From the sequence record EF517034.1: 541 nt of DNA, one strand, 5' to 3'. The position numbers were made by a program, and so were the translations under genes. Shown piece after piece: positions 2 through 541 of the stretch; positions within the stretch are counted from its first letter, which is position 1, and each line of letters starts with the position of its first letter. The notes under the pieces are model-generated. The model was not told the origin of the DNA. It was given only the letters and a program-made list of their open reading frames with translations, and searched no databases. This DNA is from a phage.

Positions 2-292
2 ACTGTGGAAGCAGGACGAGATGAGATGGCTGTAGGCTCTCACGCTAAGGGTTACAACCACAACTCTATCGGCGTCTGCCTTGTTGGTGGTATCGACGAT
101 AAAGGTAAGTTCGACGCTAACTTTACGCCAGCCCAAATGCAATCCCTTCGCTCACTGCTTGTCACACTGCTGACTAAGTACGAAGGCGCTGTGCTTCGCG
201 CCCATCATGAGGTAGCGCCGAAGGCTTGCCCTTCGTTCGACCTTAAGCGTTGGTGGGAGAAGAACGAACTGATCACTTCTGACCGTGGATAA
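2..292 (+). CDS. 3.5: Phage lysozyme / N-acetylmuramoyl-L-alanine amidase, T7 gp3.5 type (also the T7 RNA polymerase inhibitor); 5'-partial, C-terminal ~96 codons, stop TAA 290-292
   Basis: Frame-2 ORF is open from the window edge to TAA 290-292. Translation TVEAGRDEMAVGSHAKGYNHNSIGVCLVGGIDDKGKFDANFTPAQMQSLRSLLVTLLTKYEGAVLRAHHEVAPKACPSFDLKRWWEKNELITSDRG matches my recollection of the T7 lysozyme C-terminal two-thirds almost residue for residue, including the zinc-ligand/catalytic cluster AHH...K.C (His codon 203-205, Lys 221-223, Cys 227-229). The GTG at 5 used by the ORF track is an internal Val codon, not the real start. Confidence 0.93.
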   Translation, partial: TVEAGRDEMAVGSHAKGYNHNSIGVCLVGGIDDKGKFDANFTPAQMQSLRSLLVTLLTKYEGAVLRAHHEVAPKACPSFDLKRWWEKNELITSDRG

Positions 293-293
293 T

Positions 294-316
294 TAATTGA
301 ACTCACTAAAGGGAGA
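294..316 (+). promoter_or_regulatory. T7 RNA polymerase class II promoter (phi3.8 type), -17 to +6; predicted transcription start at G311
   Basis: TAATTGAACTCACTAAAGGGAGA matches the 23-bp T7 consensus TAATACGACTCACTATAGGGAGA at 19/23 positions. Mismatches are at -13, -12, -11 and -2 (window 298, 299, 300, 309). The invariant CTCACTA core and GGGAGA initiating sequence are intact. It sits 45 nt upstream of the next ATG. Confidence 0.9.
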
Positions 317-335
317 CCACAGCGGTTTCCCTTTG
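307..335 (+). other. RNA hairpin overlapping the promoter initiating region; candidate RNase III processing site (T7 R3.8 type) or 5'-UTR structure
   Basis: Hand-folded stem: 307-318 (TAAAGGGAGACC) pairs with 324-335 (GGTTTCCCTTTG) around loop ACAGC (319-323). That gives 12 bp, 10 Watson-Crick plus 2 G-U (T307-G335, G315-T327). T7 is known to have an RNase III site (R3.8) between phi3.8 and gene 3.8. Assignment to R3.8 is from memory of the T7 map, not computed. Confidence 0.4.
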
Positions 336-343
336 TTCGCATT

Positions 344-349
344 GGAGGT
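344..349 (+). promoter_or_regulatory. Shine-Dalgarno ribosome-binding site for the downstream HNH endonuclease gene
   Basis: GGAGGT is a strong match to the anti-SD complement, with a 6-nt spacer (CAAATA) before ATG 356. Confidence 0.8.
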
Positions 350-355
350 CAAATA

Positions 356-541
356 ATGCGCAAGTCTTATAAACAATTCTATAAGGCTCCGAGGAGGCAT
401 ATCCAAGTGTGGGAGGCAGCCAATGGGCCTATACCAAAAGATTATTATATAGACCACATTGACGGCAATCCACTCAACGACGCCTTAAACAATCTCCGTC
501 TGGCTCTCCCAAAAGAAAACTCATGGAACATGAAGACTCTA
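356..541 (+). CDS. 3.8: HNH (homing-type) endonuclease, T7 gp3.8 type; 3'-partial, N-terminal 62 codons, continues past the window end
   Basis: ATG at 356 is preceded by the SD at 344-349 and lies 45 nt downstream of the promoter +1. The frame is open for 62 codons to the window edge: MRKSYKQFYKAPRRHIQVWEAANGPIPKDYYIDHIDGNPLNDALNNLRLALPKENSWNMKTL. It carries the HNH-family signature DHIDGNPLND..NNLRL...ENSWN (His codon 455-457, Asn codons 467-469 and 476-478). It matches my recollection of the T7 gene 3.8 product. It is absent from the ORF track only because there is no in-window stop. Confidence 0.88.
   Translation, partial: MRKSYKQFYKAPRRHIQVWEAANGPIPKDYYIDHIDGNPLNDALNNLRLALPKENSWNMKTL

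Follow-up and report, generated by a model that had tools for sequence, protein, structure and literature searches.

Between the lysozyme gene and the primase/helicase gene of T7-like phages there is a locus that is occupied in some phages and empty in others. The DNA analyzed here, referred to as the window, is a 541-nucleotide stretch of phage DNA (sequence record EF517034.1) that ends within this locus. A frame opens at position 356 and is still open at the window edge. Is this frame a gene, what does its product do, and how did it come to lie between two conserved phage genes? A reading made from the letters alone (the sequence-only reading) had proposed an HNH endonuclease gene with its own phage promoter and had called it the most likely mobile or accessory element in the window. 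This proposal is followed up here by comparison with the T7 reference genome, with related phages that lack the gene, and with protein families and solved structures.

Identity and Layout of the Window

The whole window corresponds to phage T7 positions 10870-11410, from which it differs at seven single bases. Over 539 bases (T7 10870-11408) the two are 98.9% identical, and the same score is obtained from dozens of T7 records. The features of the reference genome NC_001604 across the window are the end of gene 3.5, the promoter phi3.8, gene 3.8, and gene 4A. In reference coordinates, gene 3.5 (lysozyme/amidase) spans 10706-11161, gene 3.8 (annotated as 'HNH endonuclease') spans 11225-11590, and gene 4A starts at 11565. 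The gene 3.8 locus is located between the lysozyme gene 3.5 with phi3.8 on one side and the primase-helicase gene 4 on the other, and the order is the same in NC_001604. The upstream gene in the window matches Pfam Amidase_2 (E 1.3e-8) and aligns to the gene 3.5 CDS of the reference, whose product is annotated as 'amidase'. It is almost certain that window positions 356-541 are the 5' half of T7 gene 3.8. The features of the window, with the evidence for each in brackets, are as follows.

2-292, plus strand: 3' part of T7 gene 3.5 (lysozyme / N-acetylmuramoyl-L-alanine amidase), codons 56-151 and the TAA stop codon at 290-292 (Amidase_2 match, alignment to NC_001604)
294-316, plus strand: T7 RNA polymerase promoter phi3.8, from -17 to +6, with the start site at G 311 (annotation and consensus)
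308-334, plus strand: leader stem-loop of 11 bp, the counterpart of the RNase III site R3.8 (RNA fold and homology to phage T7M)
344-349, plus strand: gene 3.8 Shine-Dalgarno sequence GGAGGT, six bases 5' of the ATG (direct reading)
345-541, plus strand: left part of the T7-specific segment (T7 11214-11585, about 372 bp) that is missing in relatives without gene 3.8 (alignment, junction mapping)
356-541, plus strand: gene 3.8 codons 1-62 of 121, open at the window edge (translation, PHROG 4578)
395-523, plus strand: HNH_3 nuclease domain, residues 14-56 (Pfam PF13392)
452-457, 491-493 and 518-520, plus strand: putative active-site residues D33-H34, N46 and N55, respectively (conservation, alignment to I-HmuI)

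The minus-strand ORFs are 28-54 amino acids long and overlap the two plus-strand genes, both of which have strong profile support; these ORFs were set aside as chance. Two weak promoter-like sites that a sigma-70 scan placed on the minus strand within gene 3.8 were also treated as chance. A scan of the window for terminators found none. An Rfam scan of the window gave no relevant family, the one match being a chance hit to HAV_CRE on the minus strand (E 0.54).

The Open Frame as a Gene

Translation from the ATG at 356-358 runs through 62 codons without a stop, and GGAGGT is found at 344-349, so both the open frame and the strong Shine-Dalgarno sequence that had been read from the letters are there. 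The openness is only weakly non-random when taken alone, since a frame of 62 codons would be open by chance with a probability of about 0.05 by the rough estimate (61/64)^62. The frame is accepted as a real gene because it matches protein profiles, which goes beyond its openness. The fragment scores 52.9 bits against Pfam HNH_3 (PF13392; E 2.7e-14), for which the curated gathering cut-off is 24.8 bits. This match covers residues 14-56 of the fragment and positions 3-45 of the 46 in the profile. A second match, to PHROG 4578 'HNH endonuclease', covers residues 1-61 with an E value of 4.9e-30. The assignment to the HNH endonucleases, made earlier by eye from the motif, is borne out by the profile search. 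The frame had indeed been missed by the list of ORFs that accompanied the sequence. ORFs that run off a source end go unlisted, and the omission of this frame is an edge artefact.

The T7 gene 3.8 product (gp3.8; NP_041974, 'HNH endonuclease') has 121 amino acids in the reference, in line with the length of about 120 that had been expected if the gene were T7-like. The T7 gene and the window copy share locus, promoter, and Shine-Dalgarno sequence, and 59 of the 62 residues of the fragment are identical to those of T7 gp3.8. The three changes are G29D, D45N, and P62L, each of which arises from a G:C-to-A:T transition; this comparison covers the first 62 codons, where the window stops. Given seven substitutions in 541 bases, this variant may carry a truncating mutation 3' of the window. 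An exact search for a 32-mer with the private variant at position 441 found nothing in viral, genome, or metagenome collections. When the fragment was used to query a word-indexed protein collection, the only hits were four gp3.8-like pieces (P0001-P0004), each truncated or chimeric, and full-length T7 gp3.8 was not among them. One gp3.8-like piece is labelled 'HNH endonuclease, partial [Escherichia coli]' and is probably T7-like phage DNA in a bacterial assembly.

Insertion at the Leader/Gene-4 Junction

How the gene came to lie at this site can be read from relatives in which the site is empty. T7 was aligned with four phages that lack gene 3.8, namely Serratia phage Pila, Escherichia phage CICC 80001, Salmonella phage Vi06, and phage T7M. 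The shared sequence stops after ...CGCATTG at window position 344 (T7 11213), which puts the left junction at 344/345. It picks up again outside the window at GATAGT (T7 11586). This hexamer is common to the empty-site relatives, and the TAG within it is the stop codon of gene 3.8. Approximately 372 bp in T7 (11214-11585) replace approximately 34 bp in Pila and CICC 80001, and the empty-site junction of the relatives without gene 3.8 reads ...CGCATTG/TTGATTAAGG....

The replaced stretch of about 34 bp held the ancestral ribosome-binding site of gene 4 and its first five codons (MELEQ). In Pila and CICC 80001, a ribosome-binding site and gene 4 (primase/helicase) come directly after the promoter and leader. 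The 3' end of gene 3.8 in T7 (11565-11590) contains the gene 4A start codon and first seven codons (MDNSHDS), an overlap of 26 nt. Through the insertion, the primase/helicase has therefore exchanged the N-terminus MELEQ for MDNSHDS.

Promoter phi3.8 and the Leader Hairpin

The phi3.8 start site is window position 311, which is T7 11180 in the annotation of NC_001604 and V01146. The promoter at 294-316 agrees with the T7 consensus TAATACGACTCACTATAGGGAGA at 19 of 23 positions. Its 18-nt core has three mismatches to the consensus, and 200 shuffles gave no match. The leader hairpin at 308-334 (AAAGGGAGACC-ACAGC-GGTTTCCCTTT) has a stem of 11 bp and a predicted RNA fold of -18.7 kcal/mol (z = -4.4); none of 200 shuffles folds as well. 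The homologous stretch in phage T7M is annotated as 'RNase III recognition site R3.8', and in T7 the phi3.8 start lies just upstream of the R3.8 cleavage site (PMC6938266). The hairpin had no match to a curated Rfam family in the scan of the window. It overlaps the start site of the promoter, and it is kept with a one-base change in the loop in phages without gene 3.8.

The sequence-only reading had given the frame a dedicated phage promoter. The sequence of phi3.8 is identical in Pila and CICC 80001, both of which are without gene 3.8, and the promoter and leader common to Pila, CICC 80001, and T7 read AATTAATTGAACTCACTAAAGGGAGACCACA(A/G)CGGTTTCCCTTTGTTCGCA(T/A)TG. What stands of the claim is that this is a real T7 promoter. 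It is not dedicated to gene 3.8, because the relatives that lack this gene keep both promoter and hairpin directly before gene 4. Since gene 3.8 of T7 has no terminator behind it (PMC6938266), phi3.8 is best read as the ancestral promoter of gene 4, behind which the endonuclease gene would have lodged.

The HNH_3 Nuclease Domain

A phmmer search of 1.84 billion representative proteins gave 2567 proteins with the domain at E <= 0.001. In an alignment of 43 single-domain homologues, five residues do not vary (G24, P27, D33, H34, and N46) and four more are almost invariant (H15, W19, N55, and N58). The HNH motif residues H34, N46, and N55 are all present in the window. Conservation of N55 is at least 90% among the 43 homologues, and that of N46 is 99% among 246 domain copies. 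The substitutions in the window touch no conserved HNH residue. Position 29 is G in 62% and D in 13%, and position 45 is E in 26%, S in 23%, D in 21%, and N in 6%; G29D and D45N are in variable columns where D and N both occur. Many of the top phmmer proteins (P0005-P0014 and others) are 250-660 amino acids long and contain three to six tandem copies of HNH_3, which is an unusual architecture.

A direct phmmer search of T7 gp3.8 against PDB sequences gave spurious matches only (a designed Kelch-like repeat protein and antibody chains), and for this reason a family profile was needed to reach a solved relative. The N-terminal part of the family profile matches I-HmuI (PDB 1U3E) with an E value of 2.2e-9. 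I-HmuI, an intron-encoded enzyme of Bacillus phage SPO1, is the best solved relative, and its DH..N..N motif aligns residue by residue with that of gp3.8. In the profile alignment D74, H75, N87, and N96 of I-HmuI correspond to D33, H34, N46, and N55 of gp3.8. I-HmuI nicks one strand, and catalytic roles have been assigned to its residues in the published structure. The two proteins differ in that I-HmuI is encoded in an intron, has 174 amino acids, and carries another DNA-binding tail, whereas gp3.8 is free-standing, has 121 amino acids, and appears to carry an AP2-like tail.

From the match to 1U3E, gp3.8 would be expected to adopt a beta-beta-alpha-metal fold. A single-sequence AlphaFold2 prediction of the 62-amino-acid fragment was all-helical, with a mean pLDDT of 57.8 and a pTM of 0.25, and was too poor for a comparison of folds. 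The earlier suggestion that the gene resembles free-standing homing endonucleases finds support in the profile match to I-HmuI and in the empty sites of relatives.

A Probable AP2-Like C-Terminal Tail

The second half of the protein lies outside the window. The C-terminal part of the family profile matches two plant AP2/ERF structures, 7WQ5 and 7ET4. A Pfam AP2 domain that follows HNH_3 is recognised in 13 of the 43 homologues. Pfam AP2 did not match reference T7 gp3.8 at E 1. Because Pfam AP2 misses T7 gp3.8 itself, the assignment of its tail rests on the family profile. When a profile was made from the C-terminal halves of the homologues, residues 60-121 of T7 gp3.8 matched it with 57 bits, a value that is somewhat inflated by a few close relatives of T7 gp3.8 in the profile. 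HNH-AP2 endonucleases are found in phages and bacteria and have the AP2 domain after HNH_3; the tail of T7 gp3.8 would be a diverged version of this arrangement. The combination of HNH and AP2 has been proposed as the source of the plant AP2/ERF domain. By these profile matches the gp3.8 family appears to consist of an HNH nuclease head and an AP2-like DNA-binding tail, and the window holds the head only.

Distribution, Decay, and Dispensability of Gene 3.8

The lysozyme-to-primase region has a DNA match in 1209 phage records, 107 of which are at least 99% identical to T7. Coverage of at least 80%, which includes the 3.8 segment, is reached in only 177 of the 1209. A translated search found 181 records in which the encoded product has an identity of 60% or more to gp3.8. 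Presence can differ between near-identical phages, as Citrobacter phage SH5 has a gp3.8 homologue and SH4 and Dev2 are without it (PMC4925675). The proposal that presence varies among relatives of T7 is confirmed by these comparisons.

Orthologues at the same site are found in Klebsiella phages (Przondovirus, IME1309) and in Yersinia phage fPS-21 (Helsettvirus). The full 121-amino-acid frame is kept at 73-81% identity across three genera, and in fPS-21 the overlap with the primase gene is likewise 26 nt. The copy in Klebsiella phage vB_KpnP_IME1309 has an in-frame TGA at codon 82 and is otherwise full length and 78% identical to T7 gp3.8. It is annotated as a shorter 'HNH endonuclease motif protein'. 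The IME1309 gene is apparently a decaying copy, as expected for a decaying homing-endonuclease gene.

In the literature the gene appears as 'T7 non-essential gene 3.8' (PMC6042481). Being non-essential, it has been used as an insertion site (PMC6042481, PMC3737178), and a seamless deletion of it is part of a reduced T7 genome (PMC12153263). There are also records of viable laboratory T7 phages without gene 3.8, for example MZ375249. In this record, from the mutant T7 clone T7_90L, the primase/helicase CDS is annotated from 64 nt past the lysozyme stop, which is the position of the gene 3.8 ATG in the wild type. The T7_90L deletion seems to fuse the start of gene 3.8 to gene 4A. Phages can do without gene 3.8, its distribution is patchy, and at least one phage has a decayed copy. 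The sequence-only reading had called it non-essential, which the published deletions and the viable records uphold. It had also called it a mobile or accessory element, and this description agrees with the insertion anatomy, the patchy distribution, and the dispensability.

Seven Differences from T7

All seven differences between the window and T7 are G:C-to-A:T transitions, with G to A at 10, 173, 214, 272, 441, and 488 and C to T at 540. In gene 3.5 the changes at 10 and 214 are silent, while those at 173 and 272 give A113T and V146I. In gene 3.8 three of three are non-synonymous (G29D, D45N, and P62L). The chance that all seven would be G:C-to-A:T is about 3e-6 if changes are uniform over sites and base types, and about 0.008 given transitions only. 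Five of the seven mutated G residues follow a purine. The variants were compared with six relatives at the four lysozyme positions and with two relatives at the three gene 3.8 positions. In these comparisons four of the seven variants were absent from every relative, and those at 10, 214, and 488 were seen only in distant ones. No public phage record was found to be closer to the window than wild-type T7.

These differences suggest that the window comes from a chemically or enzymatically mutagenised T7 derivative. The pattern would fit a derivative exposed to an alkylating or deaminating mutagen. Mutagenesis of T7 with nitrosoguanidine is documented in work cited in PMC8923235.

A Homing Endonuclease-Like Gene and Its Alternatives

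The best explanation overall, and very probably the correct one, is that the frame is the 5' half of gene 3.8, which encodes an HNH nuclease with an AP2-like tail of the free-standing homing endonuclease-like kind. The gene has the traits of free-standing homing endonucleases: it is lodged between conserved genes, relatives have empty sites, its occurrence is sporadic, and it is dispensable. We infer a homing mechanism from the domain architecture, the insertion anatomy, and the distribution. Gene 3.8 would be transcribed with class II from phi3.8 and upstream promoters and translated from its own GGAGGT. The product would work like a free-standing homing endonuclease. The site bound by its AP2-like tail would be a specific one, with the unoccupied leader/gene-4 junction of relatives without gene 3.8 as the most plausible candidate, and there the enzyme's only HNH active site (D33/H34/N46/N55 with one divalent metal) would make a nick or a cut. 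If both kinds of phage infected one cell, repair of the cut genome by recombination would then bring in gene 3.8 together with its flanks.

Whether gp3.8 may be an active homing enzyme at present is about an even call. The broader claim joins two parts, namely that gp3.8 is an active site-specific HNH-AP2 homing enzyme that converts relatives without gene 3.8, and that the window comes from a mutagenised T7 line that has been collecting amino-acid changes in the gene. It is offered tentatively, as a combination that would hold with slightly less than even probability. No report of a gp3.8 cleavage assay or genetic cross was found in the searchable literature, where mentions of 'gp3.8' are not on activity.

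Gene 3.8 resembles known elements in other phages. MobE of phage T4 is likewise a small HNH gene that is lodged between conserved essential genes, dispensable, and patchy. It is a predicted free-standing HNH homing endonuclease and promotes homing of I-TevIII, according to PMC2790892. Nothing comparable to the homing role of MobE was found for gp3.8. Another such gene is 5.3 of T7/T3-type phages, which carries the annotation of a homing endonuclease and, like gene 3.8, is variably present.

The main rival to homing is that gene 3.8 is a spent element, kept partly for the start of gene 4A. It would be the gene of a homing endonuclease that once invaded the leader/gene-4 junction and no longer does any useful cutting, retained as a cheap carrier of the ribosome-binding site and start of gene 4A. 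The 26-nt overlap with gene 4A and the loss of the ancestral gene-4 start region are as this would have it, and so are the internal stop that the IME1309 orthologue already has and the searchable literature, which reports no gp3.8 activity. The phage is viable after laboratory deletion of most of the gene, which also favours a spent element. All three substitutions in the window copy are non-synonymous, and this fits weak constraint, although three are too few to test it. On the other hand, none of the putative active-site residues (D33, H34, N46, and N55) has been lost. Three genera have retained the 121-amino-acid frame with 73-81% identity, which speaks for selection on the protein, and presence or absence among near-identical phages suggests recent movement. 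A spent element is a serious possibility, though on balance the less likely one.

It is considerably less probable that gp3.8 is an HNH nuclease with a role in the phage life cycle, such as packaging (as for the terminase-associated HNH protein of HK97-like phages), degradation of host DNA, or exclusion of competitors. The HNH fold does serve many functions, and the gene is expressed with the class II genes of DNA metabolism, between lysozyme and primase/helicase. This same position, however, is away from the terminase genes. An HNH protein of the HK97 gp74 type adjoins terminase and portal genes, whereas the neighbours of gene 3.8 are lysozyme and primase/helicase. Moreover, gene 3.8 is dispensable with no reported defect and is missing in many close relatives of the same life style. 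HNH_3 followed by an AP2-like tail, with I-HmuI as the best solved relative, is a set of homing endonuclease features. That the frame is a chance ORF at the window edge and no gene at all has next to no probability. In favour of this idea, 62 open codons are by themselves only marginally unlikely (about 0.05), but it is refuted by the profile matches (HNH_3 at 52.9 bits, PHROG 4578 at E 4.9e-30), next to which stand the strong Shine-Dalgarno sequence, the annotation as a T7 gene, and the conservation of the protein in other genera.

Significance

The original finding of an HNH endonuclease gene in the window is correct but ordinary, since T7 is a model phage and this gene of it is already known. 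The annotation of gene 3.8 goes back to the sequencing of the T7 genome, and the gene routinely serves as a neutral site for insertion or deletion; its detection has little discovery value. ORF tracks that drop edge-truncated frames will systematically miss genes of this kind. The comparison with empty sites suggests that phi3.8 and R3.8 are really the promoter and leader of gene 4. The same comparison sets the junctions of the insertion to the base, and the empty site that it defines may serve as a concrete candidate target for the biochemistry of gp3.8.
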